Source: Leucoraja ocellata
Taxonomy: Eukaryota
Direction of reading: 5' to 3'
Assembly: GCA_036785375.1 (NCBI GenBank)
Contig: JAWMAR010000167.1
Location: forward strand, 3,348,001 to 3,412,000
DNA: 64,000 nt
This document shows positions 9,101 through 59,846 of this stretch, piece after piece. A program made the translations under genes and the position numbers. The notes under the pieces are model-generated. The model was not told the DNA's origin. It searched no databases and saw nothing but the letters and a program-made list of their open reading frames with translations. Position 1 is the stretch's first letter, and each line of letters starts with the position of its first letter.

Positions 9101-9340
9101 TCCTTTCTACTTGACCATCTCAAAATTAACTGTATCTTTATAAACCTCTTTATTTTCTTCTTCTTACCGAGTCCACACACAAGATTAGTTGTTGTTCAAC
9201 TGGAGCTGAACCCACTTCTCGGCATCTGCATACATTGGTGTCTGTCTTGCGCTTCTTCTGCGTGGTGGTGGAAAGATTGGTGAAAACAGGGCCGCGACGT
9301 GAACGCTCTTTCCTTGACCCCAACCTTTTTATTGAAGAGG

Positions 9341-9527
9341 AGGAATGGGTGTCGTTTTGGAACGAGACCTTTCTTCAGACTGAAGTTTGTGCTGAGGCAT
9401 ACGTGCTCAGGGTCTCGACCCATAACGTCACCCATCTCTTTATAGATGCTGCCTGTCCCGTTGAATTACTCCAGCATTTTGTGTCCACCTTTGATTTAAA
9501 CCAGCATCTGCAGTTCTTTCCTACACA
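9341..9527 (+). mobile_element. Short Penelope-like insertion with inverted 5' part
   Basis: 13-bp TSD tttattgaagagg at 9328-9340 and 9528-9540; family end cagcatctgcagttctttcctacac. Confidence 0.8.
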
Positions 9528-9577
9528 TTTATTGAAGAGGTGTTATGTAAATCTTTTGCTTAAAATATATGTTTCAG

Positions 9578-9646
9578 GATCTACCTATAGTGTGCTGTCA
9601 ACAATGCCTTCGGACTCAGAAAGTAGCAGCTCCCTCAGCAGTGTCG
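9578..9646 (+). CDS. DLG5: DLG5 coding exon (equivalent of human exon 2), (G)STYSVLSTMPSDSESSSSLSSV
   Basis: tttcag acceptor, G|gtaagt donor, 69 nt, phase 1-1; peptide matches vertebrate DLG5 just after the CARD (recalled). Confidence 0.95.
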
Positions 9647-10538
9647 GTAAGTTCTCAATTTTCATTCTGATCTCGGGTCCCATTCATTAAGTTGTTGCTT
9701 CTTTGACATGCAAAAATTATAAAATGAAAACGGTATGTGTAGATCCATCAAATCATATCACTGTAATCTCATGCCCAATAATGTAGCTCCCCAGAGAACC
9801 AAACCAACCAAAATAACCTTCCAGCTTTAAACCGACTACAGGTTTGACTGTATGGCAAAGCAAATTCTTTGTATGTTGCTAAACATACTTGGCTAATAAA
9901 GTATGATTATGATTAGGAAACCATGGTTGTTATGATATATCTCAATCTAAACTATCCAGTCACATTATCCCTACATTTATGGATATCCCCTTCTCCATAG
10001 CCCTTTGCTGCAATTGCTCTATATTTAGGAAGCTCATTCAGAAGGGCTATAGTTTAATCAAAAATATACGTCCTGATGCGTGCAACTGTCTCCATATATG
10101 GATTATTCTAGGTATGTTCTTATAAACCATTCTAATTTGTCACCCAAAGAACGACTAAAGGCCTTGGCAAAGATGCAAACGTGAATTACTCAAAGGAAAT
10201 TAGGGATAAGAGATTTCAGACATAACTTGGATTCAATTTAGATAGTAAAGACCAAATACATTTCATGGACTTACATAAAGTGTTTCCAGTGGCAGATGGG
10301 AATTTAAGGGAATTGACAAAAGATAGGAGATGAAAAATGGGTTAGGATTGACAATGCCCTGAGTGGGTGGTGCAGTTTGATTTTGTGAATAGCTTTCAAA
10401 AGGGAAATGGATAATTGTTGGGAGGAAAAATTGCAAGGTTATGAAATGGTGTGATTAAAGATGAAACATGGAGCTGAGTGGCTTCCTCTGGTGCTGTGAG
10501 TTTATGAACTGCATTGTTAGGTTTTAAAAATCTCAGTA

Positions 10539-10740
10539 CAGGTGCACAACCTTTTATCCGAAAGCCTTGGGACCAGACACTTTTCGTAATTCAGAATTTT
10601 TCGGTTTTCGGAATGGAAGATTTTTAGCGTAGATTTTAACGGCTGGCTCAGTGGTAGAGTGCTCGGCTCGTATCCGTAAGGTCGCGAGTTTGCGCCTCGA
10701 TCCCGGCAGTTACTCGATCGCGAGTTTGAGTCTTCAATGC
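10539..10740 (+). mobile_element. Partial DNA-transposon-like element containing a tRNA-like segment
   Basis: TA|CAGGTG start, CpG-rich, ggctcagtggtagagt A-box/D-arm-like sequence at about 10645-10660; no second TIR seen. Confidence 0.45.
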
Positions 10741-12466
10741 ACTTCGGCCTAATTCAACAGTATAGGTCTAGCCCAAAGAGTTTTTGACATCTTTTAGGTA
10801 GCGTATTTTAAAGGATGTCATTCAAGGCTGTAAAGCTGGGGCAAAATAGATTTGTTTATGTTGAACGGCTAAATTTATACTTTAAAATAATGTAGATTCA
10901 GTGTTGGTGACCATGAATTTAATGGACGATTGCAGTAACTCATCTTGTGTATAAAAAAGCTTCAGGAAAGAAATCTGCATCCCTGCCTTCTCTGATCTAT
11001 ATGCAACTCCAGACGTGCCAATGTCATTGACTCGTATCTGGCCTCTTAGTTTAGCATATATGGACAGACAATAACCGCAACATTCACATCCCATGAAGGA
11101 ATAAAGGCATATACCTGTAACTCATTAGGACAAGCAGAAAGGCAGATGTAATAAAGCTGTTCAGAATTAATCCTTTTATCAAATGTTTTAGTGAGTTTAT
11201 ATTATTGGGTTTGTAACCAGAAGACACTGAGTCTTGAGAATGACCAGAAATGAGTCGTTCGGAGAACATGTCTTCAACCCAAGGGATCATGTTTGGTTCC
11301 AACTGCTCTGAGCTATAAAGTTGCAATTTTGTTTTGTGGGAGATGAATGTACCATAATGAGCTTGCCACCGAAATTTTAAGATCATAAGCTGAAAATTAA
11401 CCAAGTCAATGTTTTCGTATTCAATACCCTGTCACTTTGCAATTTTCTCTTGTGGATTAGAATGATTTTCAAAGCAGCTTAACAATATGTACCTCTATAT
11501 TTCATTTTGTACACTTTGACGCTGGAAAACAGTAAAAAATGTTTTCATTTTCTATGGTGACTTAGGTTTCTAATGAACTTAAAACATTAACTTGTAACCA
11601 AGGTTGATTTATGAGGATATTTTATTCAAACAAATGCTTGTGATTGAAGGAGACGGTTGAACTGATTTAGAAATAGTGCAGGCAATATGCAAATCAAGTG
11701 GAAAATCTGCACAGGTTTTATAGGCCGTCAAATGTTTATGTTGTAAATTGATTTATTGAGATGTGAAGAGTTAATGTTAAATTATTTAACGGTACCTATT
11801 TGGTTTTTTCACTTTTTAAAAATCTTTGAAACTGACAAATCCTTTGTAAAGTATTCAGGGATTAACATGCGATAGGACAACTGTATTGTAAGGCTTCTGC
11901 TTTTAACATTAATAAACTTTACAACACTGTGATAGTCTATTTTAATATCTTATTTCCACAAATGCAAATACAAAAAATCTGTATGCATAGAGATGCTAGT
12001 AAATTGTGAAATAAAAAGGATAGCTTTACTTTGCATTTAAATAGTTCTGATATTTCTGCAGTGCCATATCATGTCTCACACTGTAAGTAAATAAAACTTT
12101 GCGTGCAGAAACTGTTGCTCTGGCAACTATGGGATCCCTTTTGTGCCAACAAGTTCCCAGAAACAGCAATAAGATTAATCACCAATTAATTTGTTGTCTG
12201 AGAAGGGTTGCTCACATTGATTATATGCTGAAGTCTTGACATTGGGATTCAGCTCCAAGCCATGCAGCAAAGATTTTAAAATATTTTTTTCTCAGCATCA
12301 CCAAATTGATAATAATTCAATTAAAATTCAAACCCTTGTTAGTTCAAAATATATGAACAATTTGTTTTTCTTTTTCAAAAGTGCTTAGATTGTAAAGTGT
12401 TAATTACTAAAAGATTAAACGTGATTTATTTACTTAGAAAGTATTGTCCAGACTGATCATGCTTTA

Positions 12467-12562
12467 CTGAAGAAGGATCTCGACCCAAAACGTCACCTAT
12501 TCCTTTTCTCCTGAGATGCTGCCTGTGGCGCTGAGCTACTCCAGCTTTTTTTTTGTCTCTCT
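12467..12562 (+). mobile_element. Penelope-like fragment with decayed hammerhead-like core
   Basis: ctgaagaaggatctcgacccaaaacgtcacc followed by the family body. Confidence 0.75.
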
Positions 12563-13951: not shown

Positions 13952-14165
13952 TGTGGAATTCTCTGCCACAGAAGGCAGTGGAGGCCAATTCACTGGATGT
14001 TTTCAAGAGAGAGTTAGATTTAGCTCTTAGGGCTAATGGAATCAAGTGATGTGAGGAAAGCAGGAACGGGATACTGATTTTGGATGATCAGCCATGATCT
14101 TTTTGAATGGCATGCTGGTCCAAAGGGCCGAATGGCCTACTCCTGCACCTATTTTCTATGTTTCT
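13952..14165 (+). mobile_element. CR1-like LINE 3' end
   Basis: WNSLPQKAVEA peptide and gggccgaatggcctactcctgcacctattttctatgtttct terminus. Confidence 0.85.
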
Positions 14166-16501: not shown

Positions 16502-16600
16502 GAGGTCTGAAGAAGGGTCTCAACCCAAAATGTCACCTCCTACTTTTCTCCAGAGATGCTGCCTGACTCACTGAGTTACTCCAGCTTTTGTCTATCCTCG
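16502..16600 (+). mobile_element. Penelope-like fragment with hammerhead-like core
   Basis: gaggt-ctgaaga-a-gggt-ctca-accc-aaaa-tg-tc-acctc followed by the family body. Confidence 0.75.
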
Positions 16601-17337: not shown

Positions 17338-19544
17338 ATAGTAAGATTGGAGGGGAGAGGAAAAAATAAACTGATCCTTGCTTCCTCTGAATTAGAAAAT
17401 AAGTTGACTGAGTGTATTGAAGGCAATCTCATTGGTGGAGTGAATGCTTCTTGAGCTGAGTTCCTCTCTTTGACATAATTGCTTCACCTCAGTCACTTGA
17501 TATCTCATTTAAGAAAACTTGCTATTCTAGTTTTAAAGGATGGATGCAACTTGAAGGTAGACAAAAATGCTGGAGAACCTCAGCGGGTGAGGCAGCATCT
17601 ATGGAGCAAAGGGATAGGCGACGTTTTGTGTCGATTTGCTGGCCTTTAGTTATTTCTTGAATTTATGAAATGCATTTACGTGCTGGTAAAAGATTTGAAT
17701 ATTAAGATGTAAAAAAATAGATTTATCTATTAAATGAACAGATTTTAGAATGGTCTGTGAATTATTGCAAAATCTCTGGAAAAACTGCATTTCATCAAAA
17801 ATAAGACTATCCTTGAAATATTGTATTGAGCGCAGAGCATTAAATAAATCTTGGCATGGCTCATTGCTGTAAAATATGAGAAGCAATAAAATACGGCATG
17901 AAGGTTCATTGGAAAATGAGACATATTTCAATGGAAAATCCCTGTTTATAGCATGCTAAAGAGTATGAAACAACCATTAGCGAGGAAAAACCACAAAGAA
18001 GGATATTGTCCCCTTCAGATGGACCCCTGTGTTTAGATTCCAATATTACCCAATTTATTATTGGATGGCAATTTGCTGTATTGGATCTTGGCTTCTTTTA
18101 AAGCTTGAACAATTTTATGCATTCATTTCTGGAAGGCAGCAGAAACACCCACAGTAAAATGAGTGGGTATATGTAAAAAAATAAGATGTAATGTTATCGT
18201 GGCAGAAATCATTCCAAGATTTTTCGAGATGGGGAAGTGAAAGAATTGTATTTTAGATTTGTATTGTCATTGTTGATTGAGAGCAAACTGGCTGGATGTT
18301 CCTTCGCTGAATTAGTTTGTCCTGCTTTTGTGAACAAGACATAACTGGCAATTTTCCAGTCTCAGCTGGATGCAAGTGCTGTAACTGTACTGGAAAAGCA
18401 TGGGCGAGAAGCTAATTTTGGAGCACAGGTCTTCAGTACCGTTGCTAGGATGCTGGCTGGTCCTAAAGTCTTTACTGTATCCAACTCTCTCTTGATGTCA
18501 CTTGGAGGGAACTGAATTGACTGAGGACTAGTTTTTGCTGATGTTGGAGATATTTGACTAAAGCATGTATGGTCATCCGTTTGTGCATTGGAATGAATGT
18601 GGTTGCAAATACTCTAGCCTTGTCATTAGCATTTATATACTGGGCCTCATTGTCGTTAAAATTGGGATATTCTTGAAGCCACCTCATGGTGGCTATTTAA
18701 ATGCCCACATCTATATGGTAGAACTGCAGAGTATTGATCTAGAATTGACAGCACAGATAGGATGTTGTCAATTTATTAAACAATTAACCGGGAGAAAATG
18801 TTACCTTAGTTAAATAATTAAATTGCAGTGTAAGAATGTAAATGTAAGAATGCCTTTGTTTCTTAGTTTATAATCAAAATCCATTTCAGACCTTTGCAAC
18901 ATGTCCCACTTGTCCATTATTTGCTTTAATTGTTATGCCATTGTAACTTTGCAACTCTCTGTTAGCATGTTAATTTGCATATTCTCAGTGTCAGAACATT
19001 AGATCACCCTGTTCCTGACCCATTTCAGCATTAGGTACATTGAAAAATAGTGCCACCAAAATAATTGTTAATCAATCTGACATACAGAAGCTGAATAAAT
19101 GTAGTGCTTTATGGAGTGCTTAATTCAAATTGCTCTTTGGTAGGACAAATCTGGTCTCATTTTCCAGTGTTAGTTGCAGAATAAAAATAAATCTATGTTT
19201 CTTTCAGTCTGCCTTTCTTTCAGTAATCCATGAAGTGGCGTCCTGTAATTAAGTTTTCAATTCCCTGTAGTTATCTATTACATTACAAATTATTCAGCAC
19301 ACAATACGAATGATGTCATTTCCTTAACCCTTTGAAAGCACAGGTACTATACACTTGTCGCATGTTATAAAGGTCATTGTGCCCGAGTGGGATCTTTGAA
19401 AGAACTAACCAATTAATCCTTTTCCCCATGTCTATCCTTTTAATCATATATTCAAAGTCAATTACAGTCCCATAGAGTTTGTTCGCCAAGAGCTTTTGTT
19501 GAACATAACAGAATTGGACTAAATACTTGTAGTTCAGTCTATTT

Positions 19545-19861
19545 GTTTAGATTTAGTTTAGGGATACAGCACGGAAACAGGCCCTTCTGCCCACCAAGTC
19601 CGCACCGACCAGTGATCCCCACACATGAACACAAGCCTACACACACTAGTGACAATTTACACATACCAAGTAAACAAATTCAATCCAATTAACCTCAAAC
19701 CTGTACGTCTTTGGAGCGTGGGAGGAGACTGAAGATATCGGAGAAAATCCACGGGATCAAGGGGAGAACGTCCAAACTCCTTACAGACAGCACCCGTAGT
19801 CTGGATCAAACCCGGGTCTCCGACTCTGTAAGCGCTGTAAGGCAGCAACTCTACCGCCCAC
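19545..19861 (-). mobile_element. V-SINE
   Basis: Near full-length copy. Confidence 0.88.
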
Positions 19862-20600
19862 AATGATCTATGATCCAAGTAAAGGATTTCTTGCCATTGA
19901 TAGTATCTAGTCACCTGACATTGGAGAGTTAGATGACAAGCTACCATTTCACACTTTATAGAAGATTGATGTCAGTGACCTTTGGGTGTAAATATATATA
20001 TGCACAGTTAGTTACCTATACTTGTTTTCAGTAAACAATGTCACGAGGGCTGACACTAATGCTTAGCTTACAGAACTTGTGACCTTGCGGTTCGGGGGCA
20101 GGGGTGGGCTTCAGAGCCAATTTGCATGTGTACAGTGCATATATTAAAGAAATACACCCTGCAGCACTTTAGAAATTAATTCAGGACTGGAGTTGTTCTA
20201 GGCTGCACAGTAAAGCCATCTTGTGTCTCCAATCTGGTATATGTTGTGGATATTTTAATAATCAAACAGGTGGAGATTTTCTAATATCTCAGTCCCAGCT
20301 TCGTTGGAAATATAACCATCTGCCTATCAACAACTCCCTCACTTGTATCCACCTATTACTTGTCATACTTTGTCTGCCCCTTCTCTTCCAGCTTTCTTCC
20401 CTCCTCCCCTCAAACAATCAGTCTGGGGAAGGGGGACATAAAATGCTGCAGTAACTCAGCGGGACAGGCAGCATCTCTGGAGAGAAGGAATGGGTGACAT
20501 TTTGGGTCGAGACCCTTCTTCTGAGATGCTGCCTGACTCACTGAGTTATTCTCGCGCTTTGTATCTTGTCTTGTTTCTGTGAGATTGTTAGTTTGTTGGT

Positions 20601-20701
20601 AGACAAAAGTGCTGGAGAAACTCAGCGGGTGCAGCAGCATCTATGGAGCGAAGAAAATAGGCAACGTTTCGGGCCAAAACCCTTCTTCAGACTGATGACA
20701 A
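20601..20701 (-). mobile_element. Short Penelope-like insertion, intact hammerhead-like core on minus strand
   Basis: 17-bp direct repeat attgttagtttgttggt at 20584-20600 and 20702-20718. Confidence 0.8.
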
Positions 20702-21956: not shown

Positions 21957-22043
21957 GTAGACAAAAGTACTGGAGAAACTCAGCGGGTGCGGCAGCATCT
22001 ATGGAGCGACGGGAATAGGCAACGTTTCGGGCTGAAACCCTTC
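21957..22043 (-). mobile_element. Short Penelope-like insertion
   Basis: 11-bp TSD taaaagctttg at 21946-21956 and 22044-22054. Confidence 0.8.
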
Positions 22044-22499
22044 TAAAAGCTTTGCTGCTTTCTTGTCTATGATCTTTAATTTTTAAAAGCATTAAGATAT
22101 GCACTATTCCCATTACAGCTTTCATCCAGTATCCACAAGAGTGTAAATTTAGCTTGGCTGTCCAATTGTCCACAGGGATTGCCTGTTGGAATTGTCCCAA
22201 GTGCATGACATAATATGGTTTATCCAGATTTTGGCTGGATATGATTTCCTATCTGTAGCTGTACATTTAAAACAAGAATGTCTTTAAGTAACTGATGCCT
22301 CAACTCATTATTTGCTGTTTGTAATTACCCACATAATTTGAGCAGAGAAAAAATCGGATTGAGCAGTATTTTTAGTGAACCTCAATGGTATTGGTTCCGC
22401 CTTGTTGTACGTGAATGTCATTGATTCTCCCTGGAGGTTCACTAGCAGGTTGATGCTTCAATGCTGATGCAAACACGCATTCATTAGATCCAAAGCTGG

Positions 22500-23125: not shown

Positions 23126-23660
23126 TTCGGAATAAGGTGAGGATCTGACATTGACGATGATGACGTTTGCATACCTGTGGCTTTGTGATTGATATACTCC
23201 ACCAATGCAGCTACTTTCCGATGAGAAATGTACTGAGACCCAGTCAATTACTGGCAATAACATACACTCCAGGATGGTATTTCAGAAATGCAGCAGTCTT
23301 GGTACATTTGTTCAGATGGGAAATCAACTGTTTGTCTGGCCTTGTAGATATATAAGTAAGTCTAATGATGTTATTCTTCAGGCTCTATTTGACCAACATG
23401 AACTTGATCATCTTTAGCACCAAACCAGAGATTGTTATGATGCTGCCTGACCTGCTGAGGTACTCCAGCATATTTTTTTGTAAACCAGTATCAGGTGTCA
23501 GCCACCTCGCATTCTTGTCCATTTTTCTTGCAGCAGTAAAATACATTTGAGCTAAAATAAAATGTAAGAAAAATTCATTGGGCCTCATTCTCCTCTCGTT
23601 CTTTACTTAACAAGTAGAAAACTTCAAAAAGATGCCATTAACCAAACACTCCCTTTCTCT

Positions 23661-23770
23661 TGAAGGTAGACACATAATGCTGGAGTAACTCAGCGGGCCA
23701 GGCAGCATCTCTGGTGAGGAATGGGTGACGTTTTGGGTCGAGACCCTTCTTCAGACTGATGTCAGGGGAA
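23661..23770 (-). mobile_element. Penelope-like fragment
   Basis: gaaggtagacac...gggtcgagacccttcttcagact. Confidence 0.8.
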
Positions 23771-24881
23771 TGGGAATCTTTGTCATTACATGACTAAAGG
23801 AAAATTTATAAAGTGACAAGTTAAGGGCCTCCTTTCAATACCAGTGAGAAATGCAATATTTATACCTTTGCCAATTTTGTCATACACGGATAATGGAAGA
23901 GCCCTTGTATTCACAGTCAAATTATGAGAAACTCCAGTTCATAGGGTGCCCGTGCACATTATAACATGCTTGCTTGTTGTTTTCCTAAATCTTCAAACCA
24001 AGGGCACTTTTCAAGCGTTAAATGCCATGATCTACCTATCCTGCACCATGAAAAAGGCTTTACTTTTATAATTGTGTAACCTGATCAATGTGAAATTCAG
24101 TGGTGTTATATATCTGCCTGACACTGCCAAGTTGAGTCACTTTAGGACTTAGTATAATCATGTTCTTTGTGAAGGGAGTTAAATAATTGAATACATCTTT
24201 TTTTGTCAGGGTGAATAATGGTAGAAAGAAGAGATTTGCTTTCTATAAAAGTTTCAGGGAAGATTTAGGCTCAATGAGCAATGCATTAATTATAAATCGT
24301 TCTTTTGTATGCTCTGATCTGCCAAATTATAATCATCCATTAAAAGTTCATTTTAGACTTTTTCTTCTTAAATTGACAATTTATTACAATCCTAAGTGTT
24401 TTTGCACAATAATCTGTGCACATTTACTTTAATCTTTTGTATTATCTTTGTTGCTGAATTCTGTGCTACTCTCTGAAGGACGAGTGCATAACAAGCGGGC
24501 AGTAGTTTTCCAGTAAATGTAGTGGAGACGCCATGTACTGGAGTGGTGAAAAGAGTATTATTTACCATCAAGAAAGAGTTACTGGCATTTCAATGACTAC
24601 TCTAGTGGCATTCGTGCATACTTAACGACTCTTCAGCTCACTGTAACACGCTACGAGTATCCTGGTCATTACATTAGAGTTCACACTTCGACCCGAGAAA
24701 CTATGTGTGAGGCTAATGAGGATTTAAATCTTGAAAAAAAAATGCGGTCCGTCTCCGACAGGTAGATGGACTGATCTCCTGCGAGACCTCAGCCTATGTT
24801 GAAAAAATATACAATCTTCAGGTGTGATTGGCTTGAAAGCGCAACGAAGGCCAACATTTCTGGAGATTATCATCTTTCTAA

Positions 24882-26170: not shown

Positions 26171-26476
26171 TTTAGTTTAGTTTAGAGATAGAGTGCGTCA
26201 ACAGACCCTTCGGCCCACTGTGCACGCCAACCAGTGATCCCGTAAACACTAGAACTCCTACATACAATGGACAATTTATATATATTTTTAACCAAAGCCA
26301 ATTAACCTACGAACCTGTACGTCTTTGGAGTGTAGGAGGAAACCAGAGCACCCGGAGAAAACCCACGTGGTCACAGGAAGAACGTACAAACTCCGTACAG
26401 ACAACATCCGTAGTCAGGATTGAACCTGAGTCTCTGGAGCTTTAAGGCAGCAACTCTCGCTGCTCCACCGTGCCGC
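26171..26476 (-). mobile_element. V-SINE
   Basis: Near full-length copy. Confidence 0.88.
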
Positions 26477-26517
26477 AGTATAGAAGTATTTAAAATGGAG
26501 TTTATAAGTTTTGCAAG

Positions 26518-26593
26518 GATTGGGGGTTTGATAGCTATGGGGATCTGGAAAATGACCATTTTCCAGATTCCCATAGCTATCAAACCCCCAATC
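26518..26593. repeat. 37-bp-arm inverted repeat with 2-nt spacer
   Basis: Arms 26518-26554 and 26557-26593, one mismatch. Confidence 0.95.
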
Positions 26594-32614: not shown

Positions 32615-32714
32615 AATAAACACAAAATGTTGATGTAACAGCGGTAACTGAGTTACTCCATCATTTGGTGTCTATCTTTGTAAACTAGCATCTGCAGTTC
32701 TTTCCTACGCGATA
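32615..32714 (+). mobile_element. Short Penelope-like insertion with fold-back
   Basis: 9-bp TSD ttatctgaa at 32606-32614 and 32715-32723. Confidence 0.7.
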
Positions 32715-32828: not shown

Positions 32829-32950
32829 AGAAACATAGAAAATAGGTGCAGGAGTAGGCCATTCGGCCCTTCGAGCCTGCACCGCCATTCAATATGATCA
32901 TGGCTGATCATCCAACTCAGTATCCTGTACCTGCCTTCTCTCCATACCTC
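32829..32950 (-). mobile_element. CR1-like LINE 3' end
   Basis: agaaacatagaaaataggtgcaggagtaggccattcggccc terminus, reverse complement of the ends at 14165 and 58702. Confidence 0.85.
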
Positions 32951-33500: not shown

Positions 33501-33764
33501 ACTGCTGAGACCAAAAGGAATAGTTTGCATTAAAAGTTGGGTTTTAAGGAGGATTTAGTTTTATTTTAGTGTATCATTTTACCGTTCCAATAAATTATTT
33601 TATATAGGTGTGGAGCTGCAAGAAATGTACTTAATTTCCATTATATGATATTTCATTATATAATCTCCCATTGCACAATTAAGATCTGACATCAATGTGT
33701 TAATTTTTATGAAGAATATATTCTGTTTCTTGTAATATAGGAAATAACTAACAGGAACTTTTTG

Positions 33765-33952
33765 AAGGTAGACAAAAGTGCTGGAGAAACTCAGTGGGTG
33801 CAGCAGCATCTATGGAGCGAAGGAAATAGGCAACGTTTCAGCCCGAAACGTTGCTTATTTCCTTTGCTTCATAGATGCAGCTGTACCCGCTGAGTTTCTC
33901 CAGCACTTTTGTCTACCTTTGATTTTCCAGCATCTGCAGTTCCTTCTTAAAC
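33765..33952 (+). mobile_element. Penelope-like fold-back insertion
   Basis: About 75-bp inverted arms 33765-33839 and 33845-33919 plus family 3' end. Confidence 0.85.
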
Positions 33953-37152: not shown

Positions 37153-39547
37153 GTGAATTTTGCCCTTGTACAGAGTTGTTTTATGCACTGCCATGTATTG
37201 CAAATATCTCTTAATCCTGTGAGTGCTCCATTACATTTTGTACGATTTTTAAATGATAGGTTATTTGACATTTTCCTTTTTTCCCCACCATTGGAAAATT
37301 ATTGATTCTGGATATGTTACGAGGTGATTAAAATTGGATTATTCCTTAAAGTAAAATTAACATTCTGATCCAGACCTGGAATGTTGGCTGTATCGCTCTC
37401 CACATCCTGGCCTAGGTAATGATATTTACTATCAACAGAACTCTGGAGATGTTGCTCAGTTTGGTCACCAGATACTAAATCTTCAAAAGGTGCTGTCCTC
37501 TCTGTACTAAATCTGAATTGTTGATGATTTAGATGTTTGTCCTCGGTACTTGAAATGATGAAAGTGCAATATCAACAAAAACACATCACACCTCCTGCCT
37601 TGGGTTTGGGAATACGAGTATCATTAATTGCTATGAAATGAAAAATAACTTTGTTGTGCTGTGGAAGTACAAACGTGCACCATAAAAGCAAAAATGGTGA
37701 AATTTAGATTCCAAAAGCCGTAACAATTCTTACATTTCCAATTCTCAGTTTCCAGCACGGACTTAAATTGTTTTTACAACCAATGGTGTAATTTTTGGTT
37801 CTATGTTAGGACTTGACCCTTTTATTGAAAAGTTGTTGGTTCAGATTCAACATCAGAGATTTGAGCTCAAACTATCTCAGTTGAGATTCTAGTGCAGTAC
37901 TGTGGGAATGGTACACCTATAAATACATTACCTAAGCATCAACACCTGGTTGCTTTTGGGACCTTGATGTGCAAAAGAAACAAACTAATTTGACAGATTA
38001 TAGTGACTACTTGGGTGATTACTGAAATTGTGAGTGGCACTGTTGATGTGGAGGTTTTCCTTGACTAGAAAACAAGTCAAATACAATGGGCACCAGGGTG
38101 GGCATCTCAAGTTGGAAGCTCTTAAGGCAGCTTATTAGCTCTTAAGGGAGATTTAGATTTCAAATGTTTGCTTCATAACTTTTTTGCAAGTGGGAATGCC
38201 AAACTTTGTAGAATTGACCATTTGCTTCTTCACTACAAAATATATGATGCACAGCAGAATCATTTCAAATCTTACACAAAATACCAGAAGGTATGCTGAA
38301 ATGTAAAGCTCTCTACCTCCCTGTCACATATTGCCATTGCATTTGTCAATTTGGATTTGTTTTGTTCGTGTGTGTATTGTGATGTCCTACTCCTTTATTG
38401 TGGAATTCCAGCTCGTTCCTAAGTAACTTTCACTGGGATTTCATACTTCACCCTGTCTTTACAGAACTTGTTTTCACTTCTTCCTTACATGAATCCAGAT
38501 CTGTTTCCAGTAGCCTATTGGGCTTTATATTCAAAATCATTGCATAGAAATGTTTTTCCTGGTGATTTTGGTGATGCAGTTACCAATCATTTTAAATCTG
38601 GTGCAAAAGCAGAAAATGTCAGAAACGCTCAACAATCCAGGCGGCATTTGTGAACAGAGGTAAAGAGTTAACTTTTCAGATTGAAAACCCTTCATCAGAT
38701 CTGAGCAAATGAGAAGACTAGTTGGTTATAAGTTGCAGAGAAAGTGGGAAAGTGATGGCTTTGATAAAAAGGAAAAATTCTTATGAGAAAGTCGAAGTTG
38801 CTGACATTTATGGTGCTATTTCCTTCACTCCATACATGCTGTCTCACCCACTGAGTTTCTCCAGCATTTTTTCTTTCTGCAGATGTTGCCTGAGTGCAGT
38901 ATTTTCTGCTATTTCGGAAATTTTGATTTTGCATCTAATATTGAGCTTTTATCCATCAGGAAACGTTTTCTTAGTATTTAAATCCTTGATAATTATGAAT
39001 TTGTGCTTATTTTTAAATCAGCTCAAAAATTAACATTCCCAGCCCCTCCACTTTGTCATGCATTGTCATTCTTCATCCCTGGCTTTACACATTCCAGTGC
39101 CCTTACAATACAATACCGTTTATTGTCATTTGAACTTCAAATGAAGTTCAAATGAAATTTGGTGTCTGCAGTCATACAACTAGAAAAAAAAAACAAGACA
39201 CACAATTAATGCATTTTACACAAACACAGTGAATCTCCTCCTCACTGCGATGGAAGGCAAAGTCATTGCCTCTCCCCTGTTTTCCATTCTTCTCCCGATG
39301 TTAAAGCCCCCGGTGGGCGATGGCAAGTCTCGCGGCCGTTAAGACCCCGCTCCGGGACATTTTCAACCCCGCAATTCGGGCGGGAGAAGTTGCCGTTGCG
39401 GGAGCTCTGAAAAGCGCTCTCCCACCAGATGTTCTTCCCAGAACAGTACAGGATATGAGGGCTTGGCCTTTATTTCATCCGGGATTTCAACATCTAAGGT
39501 CAATAGCTGAGGAGGACAACTATTGAGGACAGGTATCATCTTTCTAA

Positions 39548-39705
39548 TGAAGATAGACACAAAATGCTGGAGTAACTCAGCAGGACAGGCAGCATCTCTG
39601 GAGAGAAGGAATGGGTGACGTTTCGGGTCGAGACCCTTCTTCATACTGCTGTGTCCAGTATTTTGTGTCTTTCTTTGGTTTAAACCAGCACCTGCGGTTC
39701 CTTCC
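39548..39705. mobile_element. Penelope-like fold-back insertion
   Basis: gaagatagacacaaaatgctggagtaactc...gggtcgagacccttcttcatac plus inverted 3' end. Confidence 0.8.
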
Positions 39706-41241
39706 AATGTTGTTTTCCCATATGTCAAATCCTGTCACTTGTGTAATGCACTGGTTGAAAATAACAGCATCTTTTTTTTAGTTTTCAACTTTGCCTCTGT
39801 CTAGACAAGTGAATGTTTTTTTTTTCCCTGGCACTAAGCGTTTTTTAAGTGTGTCTTGCTCGATCTCTGATGAGCGATGATAGCAAGTACTTTTATATCT
39901 TGGAATCCTTTCAAGAATGGTGATGTTAGGAAGAAGTTGTTGCGTCTGAACCTCCTTCATCTTCGTGGTGGGCTAAAAGAAATGCTAAAGTAAAAACAAC
40001 TTTTTTTCAGCCGCTGCTTGCTTAAGTAACGCCTCAACTGTTGCAGGCATTCAGGTTTAAATAATTGTAAGCAAAAACCAATATTGTTGTGCAAGGCATG
40101 TTGGAATTTTACAAATGTACAACTATTAATTTACAATTCGGTCTTCATTAACACTAACCTGTATGCTCTATTTGATCCTCCTTGGATTATCAGGTCACTT
40201 GTCGAAACAAGGAGCTGCAGATGCTGGTTTACAAAAAAAAGACACAGTGCTGGAGTAATTCAGCGCATCAGGCAGCATCACTGGGAAACGTTGATGGGTG
40301 ACATTTCGGGTCGGGACCTCTTTTTCAGTCAGTCTGAAATAGGGTCTCAACAAGAAACATAATTGATCCTAGTTCTGTAGGGATGCTGCCTGACAGAACA
40401 TGAGCAAGGGATGCTGCCTGACCCACTGAATTACTCCCTGCATTTTTGTTTATTTTTTAATGAGAGCTCTTATTTTGCTTGTATCGTGAAGTGGCGCAGT
40501 TTGCAAGTGCAACATGTATTTAGACAGAAGCATTTTGCAGAGTTCTGTCATTACAGTTGTACAGCAATAGGCTTTTTTTTCGCTCGTCTCCAAGGTTATT
40601 CAGTGAGTTGGAAAATTTTCCCACGGAATGACATATGATTTATATCAATATTCTTCAATTTATCTTATCTTTTTCAGCAGCATTTTACTTCTGAAAAATG
40701 AGACATCTAAAGAGTACTAACTACATGTGGAGAACAAAATTATTAACTATATGATATTTCTATAAATTTAGAAATATAAGCTAGAAATCTAACTATAAAC
40801 ATTGTGGGTCTGGTTATTTTTCATAATAAATACAAATTCTAATTGACATCTTTGTTCCTTTTTTTATTACACCATGTACACATAAAGTTGTTTCTGTGCT
40901 GGAGCACTTAACACCCGTTTCCAAACAAAAATATGAATCCCTGTTAGATCCCTGAAGTTGTGACAGACATCTGTTTAAATGTCAATCTGTTATTTTCTGT
41001 TTCTTGAGATAATTCCAAATAAGTTACAACATTAACCTCTGAAAAGCAGTCACTCCAGTTTTGCAAATCATTTAAATCAGCAATTTTTATTATAAAACAA
41101 AACCTTTGTTACTTCTAAATATTGTTTTGTGCAGAAATTGTCTTTTTCAGTGCATTTGTGTAATGATTTGTTTATGATAGAATTTAAATCACCAGTAAAA
41201 TTTGCAAAGCAACACAAATTGTTTAGTGTTTGAATTTACAG

Positions 41242-41426: not shown

Positions 41427-41974
41427 GTAAGATGCTCACATAGTCCTTCAATGTCACAAATTTATGCTGATTAAGTCTCAGTACTCAGTTCACGCCTTCC
41501 TTTCATTCTAATGATAATAATACATCCTTGGCATAGTTTCCAGTGGCAATAGAAATAGAGAAGGTTGGAATTACTGAGTAGGTCAGGCATCAGCTTTGGA
41601 GAGGGGCACAGTCAATGTTTTAGGTCAATGACCCTTCTTGAAAATTGGGAAAGCAAATGTGCTTTAACCTACAGAGAGCGAAAGGGTGAAAGGTAGAGAC
41701 ACGCCTGTCCTGGTGATAAAATTATTGTTACCGTCCGTCCATGCAAGTTGCAACTGTTGAAATCCAATATTAATTTCAAACATTAAAAAAAACAAGCCTT
41801 TCCTCTATGTATCAGAACTGAATATTTCTTAGCCAAGGTCACAGACCTGTGACAATAAACTCTGTTTTTCTCTCATCATGGATGCTAGCCGTTCAGTTGA
41901 TTTTCACATGCATCTTTTATTTCAGTTCAGAGTTCAAACATATTATTTTTCTCTGCAACTGTTCTAAGTTCATA

Positions 41975-42230: not shown

Positions 42231-42503
42231 TCATCATCTTCTTCCATTTACACATTACTTGACAGGTCAGCTACACTAATTAGATGACATCAAAAGTCTA
42301 TATGGAAGCAGGGTTTTTGGCCCCGCCATTTAAAAAAATCCAAGATAGTGTTTATTTTCTGCTTGTAAGTTTCCAAAGTAAATTTTCCCGATCTAAATCA
42401 TGTTACATTATGTTGGTCTGCATAATGCTAATGATGTTCCTCAATTCATCACCTGTTATATTCAATTTGTGTTATGGAAACGCGTGTTAGAGTAAAACTA
42501 AGA

Positions 42504-42720
42504 ATAGACACAAAAAGCTGGAGTAACTCAGCGGGACAGGCAGCATCTCTGGAGAGAAGGAATGGGTGACATTTCGGGTCGAGACGGGTCGGGTCTAAAG
42601 GTCTCGACCGGAAACGTCACCCATTCCTTCTCTCCAGAGTTGCTGCCTGTCCCGCTGAGTTACTCCAGCTTTTTGTGTCTATCTTCGGTTTAAACCAGCA
42701 TCTGCAGTTCCTTCCTACAC
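42504..42720 (+). mobile_element. Penelope-like fold-back insertion
   Basis: 82-bp inverted arms 42504-42585 and 42601-42682 with 3 mismatches, then the family 3' end. Confidence 0.88.
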
Positions 42721-45613: not shown

Positions 45614-45914
45614 GGTTTGGTTTGGTTTAGCAATACAGCAAGGAACCAGACCCTTCGGCCCACCGACTCATGCTGATCATCGATCGCCCATTCATACTAG
45701 TTCTACGTTATTCCACTTTCTCATCCTCTCCCTACAAATTAGGGTGATTTTGTAGAAGCCGATTAACCTACAAACCCGTAAGTCTTTGTGATCTGGGAGG
45801 AAACTGGAGCGCCAGGAGGTCACGGAGAACGTGCAAACTCCACACAGACAGCACCCGGTCAGGATCATACCCGCTTCTCTGGCACCATGAGACAGCAGCT
45901 CTACCAGTTGCACC
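45614..45914 (-). mobile_element. V-SINE
   Basis: Tail, partial V-domain and head. Confidence 0.85.
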
Positions 45915-46492: not shown

Positions 46493-46611
46493 GTAATTTA
46501 ACTTTTCCTTTGTCCAAAGCAGTTTTGTCCTTTAGGAAATGCAGATTTGACACCACAACACGTGTTCACGTTCATAATAAATAAAGCCGATGAAATTATT
46601 TTTTTTAATAC

Positions 46612-46921
46612 TAGTTTAGTTTAGAGATACAGCTCGGAAATAGGCCCTTCGGCCCTCCGAGTCCATGCCGACCAGCGATCCCCGCACATTAACACTCATC
46701 CTACGCACACCGGGGGCAATCTACATTTGCACCAAACAAATTAACCTACAAACCTGTACGTCTTTGGAGTGTGGGAAGAAACCGAAGATCTCAGAGAAAA
46801 CCCATGCTGGTCACAGGGAGAACATACAAACTCCATACTGATAAGCACCCGCAGTCAGGATCAAACCCGGGTGTCTGGTGCTGTAAGGCAGCAACTCTAC
46901 CTCTGTGTCACTGTGCTGCCC
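46612..46921 (-). mobile_element. V-SINE
   Basis: Near full-length copy. Confidence 0.88.
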
Positions 46922-47996: not shown

Positions 47997-48517
47997 TCAG
48001 ATTCAGATTCAGATTCAATTTTAATTGTCATTGTCAGTGTACAGTACAGAGACAACGAAATGCATTTAGCATCTCCCTTGAAGAGCGACATAGCAAACGA
48101 TTTGAATTAAAAAAAATAAATAATAAGTGTCCGGGGGGGGGGTTGATTGGCAGTCACCGAGGTACGTTGTTTAGTAGAGTGACAGCGGCCGGAAAGAAGC
48201 TGTTCCTCGACCTGCTGGTTCGGCAACGGAGAGACCTGTAGCGCCTCCCGGATGGTAGGAGGGTAAACAGTCCATGGTTGGGGTGAGAGCAGTCCTTGGC
48301 GATGCTGAGCGCCCTCCGCAGACAGCGCTTGCTTTGGACAGACTCAATGGAGGGGAGCGTGGAACCGGTGATGCGTTGGGCAATTTTCACCACCCTCTGC
48401 AATGCCTTCCGGTCGGAGACAGAGCAGTTGCCATACCATACTGTGATGCAGTTGGTAAGGATGCTCTCGATGGTGCAGCGGTAGAAGTTCACCAGGATCT
48501 GAGGAGACAGATGGACC
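47997..48517 (-). mobile_element. Rex1/Babar LINE, 5'-truncated, young
   Basis: Uninterrupted C-terminal ORF FYRCTIESILT...HPNHGLFTLLPSGRRYRS...SFFPAAV; (tgaatc)n tail; possible 7-bp TSD taaagat. Confidence 0.9.
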
Positions 48518-50289: not shown

Positions 50290-50500
50290 TTTCACCTTTG
50301 CCACAGCTAACAATGGCCTTCTTACTTTATCATTGTTACTTTTTTACATATCTTTCATTCATTTGTTCTCTTTCTCTCTATATCTCCATCTATATCTCTT
50401 ATTTCTCTTTCCCCTGACAGTCTAAAGAAGGGTCTCGCCCCGAAATGTCACCTATTCGTCTTCTCCAGGGATGCTGTCTGACCCAAGAGTCACTCCAGCC
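50290..50500 (+). mobile_element. Penelope-like 3' segment with decayed hammerhead-like core
   Basis: Pyrimidine-rich leader shared with 59490-59846, then ctaaagaagggtctcgccccgaaatgtcacc. Confidence 0.7.
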
Positions 50501-51057
50501 TTTTACCTAATGTCAACCTAATTTTAGAATGTTGTTTAGTCTGGGGAAGGGTCCTGACACAAATTATTGACTGCCCTTTATTTGCACAAATGCTGCCTGA
50601 CCCGCTGAGATCTTCCAGCACTTAGCAGTTTCTTGTGTCAACATTTTTAAATGTTATTCACCAGTTATAGCAGGTCGCATTGGTTTGTGGATTGTGGATG
50701 GTCACCCAATGATCACATTGAATGGTGGTGCTGGCTCGAAGGGCCGAATGGCCTATTCCTGCACCTATTGTCTATTGTCTATCTATTGTAAATTGTGCTA
50801 ACACCAATATGCCCACAGCAGTGATGTTGGATTTTGAAGGTGGATGGGATTGGGGTTTGTACCAAAAATTAAGAAAAGTAGGTATCTGTATCCTCACTAA
50901 ACTAATGTTTTACATGTACAAATATCTTGGTTAAATTTGGTAGAAATTGGATTCATAGCACCAGTTTCCATAATTTTTCTGAAGATAGGTAAATAGATAC
51001 TTAAAACAGGTCTTGGTTGAGCAAATTAAGCACTAATATTTTGTCATTCCTTTGAAG

Positions 51058-53380: not shown

Positions 53381-53734
53381 CGGCGCAGCGGTAGAGTTGC
53401 TGCCTGACAGCGCCAGAGACCCAGGTTCGATCTTGACTACGGGTGCTTGTCTGTACAGAGTTTGTATGTTCTCCCCGTGACCTGCGTGGGTTTACTCCGA
53501 GATTTTCAGTTTCCTCCCACATTCCAAAGACGTACATGTTTGTCGGTTAATTGGCATGGTATAAATGTTAATTGCCTCCAGAGATGTTGCCTGTCCCGCT
53601 GAGTTACTCCAGATTTTTGTGTCTATCTTAAATTGTCCCTGGTGGGTGTAGGATAGTGTTGGTGTGCGGGGATCGCTGGTCGGCGCGGACTCTGTGGGCG
53701 AAGGGCCTGTTTCTGTACCTGCAAACTAAACTAA
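53381..53734 (+). mobile_element. V-SINE with nested Penelope-like fragment (53577-53627)
   Basis: A box ggcgcagcgg, B box ggttcgatc at 53424, V-domain, (ctaaa)n tail. Confidence 0.9.
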
Positions 53735-57143: not shown

Positions 57144-57706
57144 GTAATATTCTGCACTACTCATTAGAGGATCACAAATTGTTATTCTTCCTGCATTTTT
57201 CCCTATATCCCCACAGCACAGAAAGGAGGCATTTAGAAATAAGGTGCATGTGTTACCTTGAGCACGTCGTAAGCATCATCAGTTGAAGGGTTTGTAGTGG
57301 AAAAATATAATAATAATAATAATAATATACTTTATTGTCATTGCACATAAGCACAATGAGATTTGGTATGCAGCTTCCATCCGATGTCATAACTTAAATA
57401 ACTAATAAAATTTAGATTTAGATTTCGATACCCCGAGAACATGGTTTGTAAAAACAACAGTAAAATAGTCAAAACAGTTCAAACAGACTAAAGTGCAGAT
57501 GTGTCTGTGTGACGTGACCATCCAAGGGAGACAGTCCTTGGGGGGTGGGGGCACTCTGCAGGGCCGGCATATTGCAGTGACAATTTATAATAATCCACTT
57601 TTTGTTTCTTGGGAAATTTGCTATTTCAATTATTTGCTACTTGAATTATATGTCAGCAGTTCTCAATGTGTGTAAACTCTCGTAACGGCTGAGAAGTTAC
57701 TTTAAT

Positions 57707-57874
57707 GGTAGACAAAAATGCTGGAGAAACTCAGCGGGTGCGAGTCTGAAGAAGGGTTTCGGCCCGAAACGTTGCCTATTTCCTTCGCTTCATAGATGCT
57801 GCCGCACCCGCTGAGTTTCTCCAGCATTTTTGTCTACCTTCGATTTTCCAGCATCTGCAGTTCCTTCTTGAACG
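57707..57874 (+). mobile_element. Penelope-like fold-back insertion with intact hammerhead-like core
   Basis: 11-bp TSD gttactttaat (57696-57706, 57875-57885); perfect 36-bp inverted arms. Confidence 0.88.
57744..57775 (+). ncRNA. Minimal type I hammerhead-ribozyme-like motif
   Basis: CTGAAGA 57746-57752, extra A, stem II gggt-ttcg-gccc, GAAA 57766-57769, CG, TT cleavage site; helix I only about 2 bp, so activity is uncertain. Confidence 0.55.
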
Positions 57875-58334
57875 GTTACTTTAATAATAGTTCACATATA
57901 ACTGGTATCTTGCTCATATTTTTACAGCATCCCAGGAGATGGATTCCAGTTGAGATTCTGTTAGCCAAATTCCATTTGATTTTTAATAGTTTTATTTATA
58001 TCTGTACCAGAATAATTAATATCGGCTGCTTTTTATTAGTATGACTATGGCAAATCAAATTCCTCGTATGTTGCAAAACATACTTGGCTAATAAAGTATG
58101 ATTATGATTATGAGAAGTAAGAGACAAATTTTCTTGCACACTGCATAAAAAAGTTGAGCTATTGTGGGTAGATTATTTTAGGTATTTGTAGTATGTTTTT
58201 GTTGTCAACTGTAAAAACAGTTATTTTTGAGAGGATATATTTCTAGACAAGGAACCGTAAATGCTGATTTTCCACAAAGGACAGAAAGTGCTTGAGTAAC
58301 ATAGCTGGTCGGGCAGCATATCTGGAGGACATGG

Positions 58335-58702
58335 TGCCTAGATGCAGGAAGATTATGCTAGATGCAGGAAGATTATTGCCAATGTTGGGGAAGTCCAGAA
58401 CAAGGGGTCACAGTTTAAGGTTAAGGGGGAAATCTTTTAGGACCGAGATGAGAAAATCATTTTTTACACAGAGAGTGGTGAATCTGTGGAATTCTCTGTA
58501 AGAGAAGGTAGTTGAGACCAGTTCATTGGCTATATTTAAGAGGGAGTTAGATGTGGCCCTTGTGGCTAAAGGGATCAGGGGGTATGGAGAGAAGGCAGGT
58601 ACAGGATACCGAGTTGGATGATCAGCCATAATCATATTGAATGGCGGTGCAGGCTCGAAGGGCCGAATGGCCTATTCCTGCACCTATTTTCTATGTTTCT
58701 AT
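58335..58702 (+). mobile_element. CR1-like LINE 3' end
   Basis: SRTRGHSLRLRGKSFRTEMRKSFFTQRVVNLWNSL and ttctatgtttctatg terminus. Confidence 0.9.
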
Positions 58703-58749
58703 GGATAAGCGAGGTTTCAGGTCGGGACACTTCTTCAGACAAATTGTAG

Positions 58750-58771
58750 TGGGGGGGGGGGGGGGGGGGGG
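58750..58771. repeat. Poly-G tract of about 20 nt
   Basis: Seen directly; lies inside a Penelope-like fragment. Confidence 0.9.
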
Positions 58772-59489
58772 AGAGAGTAAAAGCTGGAAGGGAGCTGGGG
58801 GTAAAGTTTGATACATTGCCAGACTTTGTCCTATCTCTCCTAGCTTTCTCTGTCTTCCTCCCTCCCTGACTACAATCAGTCTGAAGAAATCCTGACCTAA
58901 AAGGTCGCCTATCCATGTTCTCTTGAGTTGCCACCTGACCTACTGGGTGAGGTCAGCACTATCCACTTAGTTACTCATTTGGTTCCTTGTTTGGTTTTGG
59001 TCTGGGCATGAAAACTGAACCAAGTCGCTAGTCAGGCTTTTTAGTGGCGAATAAATTTGCCCCTCTGACAGGAGAACAATGCACCTTGTACTGTCTGTCA
59101 GTGAGTAAATTTAGAAATCTTATTCACTTAAATCACATATTTGAACTCTACAAGTTGTAAATGGTTGTAAATGCCAGTGTGTAAAAGGAATGAGACAATT
59201 TTGCGAGTATTTTATAATCGTTTTGGTTTCCAATTAAATGCAAAGCTCCACTTGCCCTTTCTTTTTATGTACATTATGATGTTGCTGTGGTAACTGTCTG
59301 GTTAGCTGGCTGTTTGCACACTGAAAACCTCGCCCATTGACTTGCAGGTTGCAGGTCGGGCTGTGATTTCAATTGGCATTTTGCTGGTTGTTTGGTGCTT
59401 TCTAGACTTCGTTTTTGAAGACGTGTGTGTTATGGTAGATGATGACGGGGTATTGTCATGGTTTGAAGATAAGGCACTCTAGGGTAACC

Positions 59490-59846
59490 CTTGCACCCCC
59501 TCTCTCTGTCCCTCCCCCATCCTAGTCGTTGTATTAGTTTCACTGTCGTCCAGGTGAGTTTCATAGTCTGTATAACTCGTTAACACCTAACCACACACAG
59601 CTAACAATGGACATTTTTCTTGGTCTTTACCTTTTTGCATATTTTTAATTAATTTGTTCTATATCTCTCTACATCAACATCCATATCTCTCGTTTCTCTT
59701 TCCTCCAACTCTCAATCTGAAGAAGGGTCACGACCCAAAACATCACCTATTCCTTCTCTCCAGAGAAGCTGCCTGACCTGCTGAGTTACTCTAGCTTTTT
59801 GTGTCTACCTTTGGTGTAAACCAGCACCTGCAGTTCCTTCCTACAC
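59490..59846 (+). mobile_element. Longest Penelope-like 3' segment in the window
   Basis: Pyrimidine-rich leader, ctgaagaagggtcacgacccaaaacatcacc at 59717, family body and ttccttcctacac end. Confidence 0.75.

Follow-up and report, generated by a model that had tools for sequence, protein, structure and literature searches.

Hammerhead-bearing short repeats of Leucoraja ocellata as probable terminal-repeat stubs of Penelope-like elements

The short repeats found in a 64,000-nt stretch of Leucoraja ocellata DNA (GCA_036785375.1, contig JAWMAR010000167.1, positions 3,348,001-3,412,000, forward strand; hereafter the window) are almost certainly terminal-repeat (pLTR) stubs of Neptune/Nematis-type Penelope-like elements (PLEs) that reside in the same genome. 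Taken as a whole, the account that very probably explains the data best joins these pLTR stubs with a mostly mutated hammerhead that likely does not cut host RNA and with a start-site model of copying. From the translations of its exons, we take the host gene to be DLG5-like; Pfam recognises a PDZ domain in one exon and coiled coils in others, and the Atlas gives nothing clear.

Abundance and parent element of the repeats

Family matches were called with a profile built from the 133-nt terminal unit, and the reversed sequence served as control. The window contains 33 matches, 18 on the plus and 15 on the minus strand, with no strand bias seen among them, and its reversed control contains none. 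The repeat family reported in a first-pass annotation of this DNA is clearly real, and all eight coordinates cited there are members. Its description as very abundant is borne out by an unbiased genome-wide sample of 80 x 10 kb (800 kb), which holds 365 matches, 353 of them with mapped ends, and scales to approximately 1.5 million in the assembly. About 4% of the sampled DNA is this 133-nt Penelope end, and the copy density in the window equals the genome-wide background. The five target site duplications (TSDs) reported earlier are all exact (Table 1), and no convincing flanking TSD is present at the other 12 window intervals examined. The inverted 5' copies are present as claimed, and one adjoins 140 of the 353 sampled copies. 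The hairpins of the window, with a predicted fold-back energy of -83.6 kcal/mol at 57700-57850, are real but by-products of insertion. The two subfamilies, A and B, do differ at stem II (T-A/T-G) and at helix I (T-A/T-G). Nonetheless, the claim that pairing is kept does not amount to covariation, since the changes are one-sided wobbles and both-sided changes occur in 1-5 of 230-244 per stem II pair.

Table 1. Copies of the family in the window (TSD positions in brackets).
Copy	Positions	Strand	Details
A fold-back stub	9341..9526	+	inverted arm 9341-9382 (mutated hammerhead part), spacer, direct arm 9409-9526 with tail; 13-bp TSD (9328/9528)
A stub, starts at C3	12467..12560	+	G12>A, stem II mismatch; core end
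A stub, starts at hammerhead edge	16505..16600	+	G12>A, C15.2>T
B stub	17546..17634	-	without CUGANGA
A head-to-head pair	20428..20566	-	20428-20523 minus, 20518-20566 plus; broken core
B stub, intact core	20601..20697	-	C3 at 20690; antisense to host gene; 17-bp TSD (20584/20702)
B stub	21957..22044	-	truncated within CUGANGA; 11-bp TSD (21946/22044)
Short internal fragment	23439..23484	+	without hammerhead
A stub	23655..23774	-	~20 nt upstream UTR; G12>A
Short stub with tail	32615..32710	+	without hammerhead; 9-bp TSD (32606/32715)
B fold-back	33758..33952	.	joint at stem II/GAAA near-palindrome; neither arm has CUGANGA
Old diverged stub	38607..38699	-	broken palindrome
B-like fragment	38820..38895	+	without hammerhead
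A head-to-head pair	39540..39706	.	39540-39648 minus, C3>A; 39653-39706 plus, tail
Old composite	40207..40457	.	minus arm with tail, plus arm, tandem fragment; broken cores
Old diverged stub	41555..41639	-	
A fold-back	42491..42720	.	inverted arm core end, direct arm tail; CUGANGA missing
A copy	50300..50504	+	~119 nt into PLE 3' UTR, start approximate; G5>A, C15.2>T
Old diverged stub	50538..50644	+	tandem behind 50300..50504 copy
A fragment	53575..53642	+	without hammerhead
Young B fold-back	57707..57872	+	sole intact host-sense core; C3 at 57746, predicted cut after 57773; 11-bp TSD (57696/57875)
Old fragment with tail	58248..58327	-	without hammerhead
Old head-to-head pair	58703..58966	.	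UTR sequence between two broken cores
Longest window copy	59474..59846	+	~242 nt 3' UTR to ORF stop region, hammerhead (G12>A, G16.2>A), tail

When A copies are followed in the 5' direction, the C-terminus of a GIY-YIG domain is found directly upstream of the terminal unit, and the same holds for B copies. The parent layout is pLTR - ORF - pyrimidine-rich UTR - pLTR. A complete pLTR-ORF-pLTR copy is present in L125/L127, with hammerheads ~3.6 kb apart, and direct pLTRs each carrying a hammerhead are seen there and in young B elements, where 30 loci include 15 partial tandems. One locus (L287) carries a 1,163-aa open frame with RT motifs, a CX4CXXC linker and GIY-YIG, followed by a B unit; of the 12 loci with such a long frame, 11 have a B unit immediately 3' of it. 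The first ATG of this frame is ~164 nt after C3. Pfam matches on the element ORF (RVT_1, E 2.9e-6; GIY-YIG, E 0.01) are both below curated cut-offs, Atlas matches to HTH_animal/GIY-YIG clusters reach 0.96-0.97, and a solved-structure search with two RT stretches gave no relevant match. The CX4CXXC linker was read directly in the frames of both A and B elements. The class of the element is set by its architecture (ORF domains, linker, pLTRs and ends), with Neptune and Nematis left undivided. A young subfamily with near-intact ORFs is present in the genome.

Published endonuclease-containing (EN+) PLEs share with these elements the single ORF with RT, CX2-5CXXC linker and C-terminal GIY-YIG, pLTRs from partial tandems, heavy 5' truncation, an adjoining inverted copy and a 30-40 bp tail at one end, while their TSDs are given as 8-10 bp against 9-18 bp here (PMC8557442, PMC3846280). 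Both the additional A that follows A9 and the inverted copy at the 5' end are published PLE hallmarks (PMC4209133, PMC8557442).

The earlier view of self-contained short retroposons does not hold, given that copies run 5' into the PLE ORF; the linked GIY-YIG and RT ORFs whose search it had proposed lie 5' of both subfamilies. The Penelope-type minimal hammerhead that it recognised stands. On the present evidence, the distinct non-autonomous, retrozyme-like family does not, because both subfamilies are ends of RT + GIY-YIG elements, most haplotypes are shared by short and ORF-linked copies and inversion junctions are nearly all unique. A self-propagating SINE- or retrozyme-like family, with solo copies as its source of transcripts and moved in trans by PLE protein and possibly via hammerhead-made circles, would account for stubs far outnumbering ORF-linked copies (22 of 353 sampled copies reach the ORF stop) while carrying cis ends. 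PLE-derived tandem retrozymes are reported from vertebrates, including one cartilaginous fish (10.64898/2026.07.22.740005), and animal non-LTR retrozymes share with these repeats the pLTR origin, the type I hammerhead and the non-coding nature. Retrozymes are defined by a tandem arrangement in which every unit has its own hammerhead; no array of intact units occurs in the window, and tandem arrays are rare in the 800-kb sample, where L245 holds the one head-to-tail array, of three 130-nt B units. In a small comparison of 100 short and ORF-linked B copies, two haplotypes occur in short copies only (0 long/6 short and 0/3). Such a family is nevertheless improbable, since in that comparison most haplotypes are common to both classes and inversion junctions rarely recur, copies do not begin at the cleavage site, and one intact same-strand pair less than 400 nt apart was found in 800 kb.

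State of the hammerhead core

In both subfamilies, the majority state is the core CUGANGA/GAAA/UH with an extra base after A9 and G10.1-C11.1. The minimal hammerheads of metazoan PLEs (PMC4209133) have in common with it CUGANGA, an extra base between 9 and 10.1, G10.1-C11.1, GAAA, a palindromic 15.2-16.2 and no loop 3, as well as their location in pLTRs, mostly as single motifs from truncated elements, and their opposite-strand pairs. Stem II has 4 bp here versus 6-8 in the PLE examples of that study, and helix I has 2 bp here and in the D. virilis variant versus 4-5 in Schistosoma. This 2-bp helix I is seen in 33 of 42 intact ORF-linked copies, with the third pair paired in 5% and one-sided changes between subfamilies. 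A longer helix I was rejected, given that the 5-bp pairing at 16507 uses flank letters in a copy with G12>A. The palindrome at 15.1-16.1 (ACGU), with no loop 3, implies a dimer, and CpG decay has broken it in about one third of copies.

Intact cores are present in two of the 33 window matches (57746 on the plus and 20690 on the minus strand), in 27 of the 365 sampled matches and in none of the reversed control. Of the other copies cited in the first-pass annotation, those at 12467, 16507, 23754 and 59717 have G12>A, that at 50422 has G5>A and a broken palindrome, and that at 42601 is without CUGANGA. CpG core positions are mutated in 14-34% of copies, with G12 and the ACGT palindrome decaying like other CpGs. 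In A, non-CpG core positions look slightly better kept than the flanks (5% mutated versus a median of 10%); alignment-edge bias or subfamily mixing may explain this difference. By scaling, the genome holds ~116,000 intact cores (95% range 77,000-169,000), compared with ~4,000 in coelacanth and ~9,000 in Xenopus (PMC4209133), counts obtained by different search methods. Rfam gave no hammerhead match at E<=1 in the window, nor at E<=10 in three loci; its miRNA-family matches are fold-back artefacts far under the gathering scores.

The number of intact cores, the strong predicted fold-backs and the finding of the unit in 0.12% of the poly(A) reads of a related organism might be read as signs of an active load, or of co-option for regulation, in which the copies cleave or fold host pre-mRNA. 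This is highly implausible, given that the 64 kb contain one intact sense copy, monomeric, with a 2-bp helix I and a helix III that is impossible without a partner. The statement that the family loads host pre-mRNAs with ribozyme cores is an overstatement for the same reason, and because there is no strand bias, the density is that of the background and catalytic positions such as G12 undergo CpG decay. Single minimal hammerheads did not cleave in vitro (PMC4209133), and that of the anole requires protein (PMC11167929). Judged from sequence, the hammerheads in the window introns are very probably inert. Any activity of the hammerhead would be in the RNA of the parent element, as a dimer aided by protein.

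Copy ends and the copying mechanism

Copy starts were counted relative to the hammerhead 5' edge, with negative values upstream. Of the 353 copies, 148 start at -8..+3, 156 further inside and 49 upstream. The edge is a true boundary, with 52% pyrimidine in the flank versus 80% in the UTR, and TSDs of at least 8 nt are found in 13 of 62 cases versus 0.5% of shuffled pairs. The TSD-defined 5' ends (22 cases) spread from about -7 to +5 without a consistent extra G, indicating that there is no single start nucleotide; a single-nucleotide start with a cap-derived G was discarded. Cleavage-defined 5' ends were also rejected, given that the cleavage site shows no peak (10 starts in +26..+30 versus 8-18 in neighbouring bins). 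This distribution argues that hammerhead-cut linear RNA is not the usual template.

The 3' ends fall at two fixed sites ~35 nt apart, 162 at the core and 112 at the tail, with 79 at neither. Of 46 head-to-head pairs, 34 are core/tail, 11 core/core and one tail/tail (p 2e-4). Together with the 5' pile-up and with the passage of the edge by nearly all long young B copies (below), this pairing is what would be expected if priming were internal and the template RNA had its 5' end at the edge; the start-site model for the pile-up is, in our judgement, evenly poised.

The pile-up could otherwise reflect RT arrest, where an RT that has only just started, with low processivity, halts at the border of the C-rich pyrimidine tract (through a bound protein, structure in the RNA or a G-rich cDNA) and one that has travelled kilobases passes. 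The cliff at -7/-8 matches the 3' edge of this tract in all subfamilies, and ends spread over ~12 nt with no cap-derived G are in line with it. Arrest is nonetheless less likely, since the ends precede the tract, with 19 starts in -59..-10 versus 148 in -8..+3, and 15 of 16 long young B copies, picked by N-terminal similarity without de-duplication, pass the same sequence, whereas in the sample 8 of 26 young B copies do so (p 8e-5). The contrast is weaker for old A long copies, of which two start at the edge (L126, L152) and three pass.

The pyrimidine tract, the CTRAC-like motif in A subfamilies and the CAG directly before the core resemble a 3' splice site, in which case the stubs would come from spliced or mis-spliced RNA, as the layout of D. 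virilis, with an intron ending at helix I (PMC4209133), might suggest. This is very improbable, given that the edge is joined to internal ORF positions at scattered sites that no GT follows, the subfamilies do not share the GT found at the ORF stop, the best-supported RNA-read joints include no ORF-to-edge GT..AG joint, and TSDs abut the hammerhead edge. A spliced-retrocopy origin was discarded, as there is no recurrent donor. In the RNA reads of the related organism no start pile-up is seen at the edge, and such libraries show starts poorly. Most of these reads stem from copies embedded in other genomic sequence, so that their limits follow the borders of those copies and reveal no starts or cut ends; for this reason, they are not used as support.

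In the start-site model, the element protein would nick both target strands and prime internally at the core or tail site; internal priming and cutting of both strands have been shown in vitro for the anole PLE (PAc, Poseidon of Anolis carolinensis, PMC11167929). The template would be uncleaved RNA with its 5' end at the hammerhead edge, likely a cluster of start sites, and the cDNA would run off after 95-135 nt and integrate as a stub. Priming at both nicks, one per site, would give the head-to-head fold-back, while on read-through or multimeric RNA the enzyme would pass the edge, giving long copies and partial tandems. It is put forward rather tentatively that the approximately one million stubs are strong-stop-like cDNAs, primed internally on an uncleaved transcript whose 5' end is right at the first helix of the hammerhead, ~95 or 130 nt away, with twin priming taking one site each and long partial tandems coming from read-through or hammerhead-circularised RNA.

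PAc likewise has two 3' ends that define the tail, cuts and extends both strands, does not need the hammerhead for insertion and has no RNA ends at the cut site. PAc belongs to the Poseidon clade and its ORF begins in stem II, unlike the ORF here. Against the start-site model, the Penelope start site of D. virilis is not at the hammerhead edge, lying 46 nt upstream of the 75-nt intron mentioned above (PMC2377424). In the literature searched, no description was found of the 5' pile-up, nor of this PLE family in cartilaginous fish; the supplementary lists of PMC4209133 may include shark motifs.

Significance

As a ribozyme discovery the finding is ordinary, given that the minimal hammerheads of PLEs and their insertion architecture are already published. 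Its added value lies in the scale, with ~4% of sampled DNA and perhaps 100,000 intact cores, and in the junction statistics. The distribution of ends makes the start-site or strong-stop model directly testable and bears on the copying cycle of PLEs and on the role of the hammerhead. If the strong-stop reading is true, the genome would hold a record of a million events that separates two classes of PLE template, with the start site on the ribozyme.

Short repeats and their parent elements

A search of the window with a profile of the 133-nt end, built on 90 ORF-linked genomic copies, gave 33 matches, 18 on the plus strand and 15 on the minus strand, while the same profile gave 0 matches in the reversed sequence. 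All of the coordinates cited in the first-pass annotation proved in this search to be family members; the five target-site duplications (TSDs) that it claimed are exact (13, 17, 11, 9, and 11 bp), and fold-backs are plain at 9341, 33758, 39540, 42491, and 57707. The whole hammerhead core is found in only two of the 33 matches, at 57746 (+) and 20690 (-). The host gene, which we take to be 'DLG5-like', lies on the plus strand and carries a PDZ exon.

These repeats had been proposed to form a distinct non-autonomous or retrozyme-like family, a reading that was not borne out. Among genomic copies (20 loci) the 3' end is fixed and the 5' end variable, and walking upstream along the copies reached the C-terminus of a GIY-YIG domain, then reverse transcriptase (RT) motifs, and then a complete element with the order pLTR, ORF, UTR, and pLTR (L125/L127, one insertion assembled twice), in which the hammerheads are ~3.6 kb apart. 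Given that the walks reach an ORF with GIY-YIG and RT, we identify the short repeats as the terminal repeat (pLTR) of protein-coding Penelope-like elements (PLEs). Linked GIY-YIG and RT ORFs, which the annotation had suggested looking for, were found upstream of both subfamilies. Copies of subfamily A on this walk resemble one another at ~80-88% and contain frameshifts. Subfamily B, the younger of the two, has copies 95-99% alike, and at least several B copies among the 30 best matches listed extend into the ORF end. Long open frames of B, up to 1,163 aa, contain RT, a CX4CXXC linker, and GIY-YIG, and 11 of the 12 loci with such frames have a B unit 3' of the frame. A linker of this type has been described as a mark of Neptune or Nematis (PMC8557442), and its sequence would mark the parent PLE as being of one of these types.

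Young B elements (L287 1666-5154, L288, L289, and L300-L328) are 97-99% alike; their open frames exceed 1,000 aa, partial tandems are numerous, and their N-terminal stretch has 771 candidates. In the L287 ORF the N-terminal third, before RT, is low-complexity and Pro/Gly/Ala-rich over several hundred residues, and contains repeats whose number differs between copies. The PLE family may have been active recently.

In a set of 100 B copies, short and ORF-linked ones share the majority of haplotypes, two haplotypes (with 6 and 3 copies) are restricted to short ones, and inversion junctions seldom recur. At one genomic locus (L245, ~8965-9355, G000:C61), three 130-nt B units lie head-to-tail, with the tail joined to the 5' edge of the hammerhead and with intact cores that have a G-U at the stem II base. 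This locus is an obvious candidate for cleavage as a dimer and may be a nascent retrozyme-like array, like the PLE-derived tandem retrozymes described elsewhere (10.64898/2026.07.22.740005). No tandem array of this type was found in the window, and such arrays are the exception.

The abundance of the family was estimated from a sample of the 80 longest contigs only, comprising 80 segments of 10 kb placed at a fixed offset. The 365 matches obtained occupy 4.3% of bases and scale to ~1.57 million in the 3.44-Gb assembly, a number inflated by loci present twice. Many loci occur twice with flanks 95-99% identical, and the assembly seems in part to hold both haplotypes; haploid copy numbers are therefore lower than the scaled counts. 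The density in the window is at background (0.52 versus 0.46 per kb). Intact cores are present in 27 of the 365 matches, 21 of them with a 2-bp helix I; the 27 scale to 77,000-169,000 intact cores in the assembly.

The hammerhead core

In both subfamilies the majority sequence comprises CUGANGA, an additional A, a stem II of 4 bp, GAAA, the palindrome ACGU, and a triplet that is either GUC or GUU. Of 42 intact ORF-linked copies, 33 have a helix I of 2 bp. This kind of element and hammerhead is already known. Minimal hammerheads of PLEs are typified by the extra base, G10.1-C11.1, and the palindrome; they are reported to be mostly single motifs from truncated elements, and a monomer did not cleave (PMC4209133). 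In the anole PLE, the hammerhead depends on the protein, and insertion can proceed without the hammerhead (PMC11167929).

The differences between subfamilies that the annotation noted in stem II and helix I are one-sided wobbles; both-sided changes number 1-5 per stem II pair among 230-244 copies. At G12, C11.1, C15.2, and G16.2, all of them CpG positions, 14-34% of copies carry mutations, as at other CpGs, a decay as expected for dead copies. Core positions outside CpGs are slightly more conserved than the flanks, to a degree inseparable from alignment-edge bias.

Other repeats in the window

Among the other repeats, the ~165-bp one carries at its head a compact fold resembling the HDV/CPEB3 ribozymes (Rfam RF00622, scoring 29.9 bits against a gathering score of 35), with the HDV-like motif at 9270-9321, and looks like a ribozyme-headed SINE. 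It has 2,331 candidates in the genome, and the 39 best other copies are 91-93% alike; no obvious description of it was found in the portions of the literature covered by the search. The dispersed ~300-bp repeat, probably a SINE family, is abundant and covers repeat groups D4, D6, D9-D13, and D16.

Repeats of the window outside the PLE family
Feature	Coordinates	Strand	Remarks
Second repeat, ~165 bp	9157-9321	-	Unrelated to PLE stubs; AAG-repeat tail, apparent TSDs
Dispersed ~300-bp repeats	842-1145, 19539-19842, 26175-26473, 45620-45856		
Dispersed ~300-bp repeats, further copies	46602-46914, 53386-53571, 60592-60901		Same family
LINE-type 3' ends	14093-14159, 26648-26714, 32829-32952, 50709-50775, 58577-58700		
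LINE-type ORF remnants	35012-35335, 48154-48516		
Inverted repeat, 70 nt, near-perfect	26520-26591		Weak miRNA-model match

Ends of the copies

Ends could be mapped for 353 of the 365 sampled matches. The 3' end falls at the core end in 162, at the tail end ~35 nt beyond in 112, and elsewhere in 79. The extra ~35 nt is the known PLE 'tail' (PMC8557442; PMC3846280), and initiation of RT at either of two internal sites has been put forward as its cause (PMC11167929). An inverted copy lies ≤40 nt away in 140 of the 353. Of 63 head-to-head pairs, 46 have both ends classifiable, being core/tail in 34, core/core in 11, and tail/tail in 1 (expected 22, 17, and 7; p = 2e-4), with the core-end counts possibly including degraded tails misread as core ends.

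With C3 as position 0, 148 of the 5' ends lie at -8 to +3, 156 further inside, and 49 upstream, 22 of them as far as the ORF stop. This cliff at the hammerhead edge is real, given that in 82 clean edge copies pyrimidines make up 52% of the sequence upstream versus 80% in the UTR, and that a TSD of ≥8 nt is present in 13 of 62 edge copies versus 0.5% in shuffles. Neither the family nor its 5' pile-up was found described in the literature searched. No peak of 5' ends occurs at the predicted cut (+28) among the mapped sample copies, in contrast with the unrelated HDV-headed repeat, whose copies begin at or adjoining the predicted cut (12 loci, L275-L286).

RT halting at the edge is a less probable explanation of the pile-up than a start site there. 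A direct 5' pLTR is retained in 19 of the 30 young B loci selected by N-terminus; of these 19, 3 begin inside it, 1 begins at the edge, and 15, not de-duplicated, pass the edge. Passage of the edge is rarer among sampled young B copies, at 8 of 26 (p = 8e-5). The fact that most long young B copies pass the edge means that it is not an obligatory stop, which favors a template 5' end, and we give an even chance to a start site at the hammerhead edge. Judged by the fly and human consensus, the sequence there resembles an initiator. The human initiator consensus is given as BBCABW (PMC5287114). Counting against a start site are the TSD-defined 5' ends, which range from ~-7 to +5 without an extra G (22 cases), the old long A copies, of which 2 are at the edge and 3 pass it, and the start site reported for D. 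virilis, well upstream of its hammerhead (PMC2377424). A splice-site origin of the edge was rejected, with no recurrent donor found. RNA reads of a related organism mirror the genomic boundaries (-3, core end, and tail end) and do not discriminate between the models. With a start site at this position, the template RNA of the PLE would begin at the hammerhead edge.
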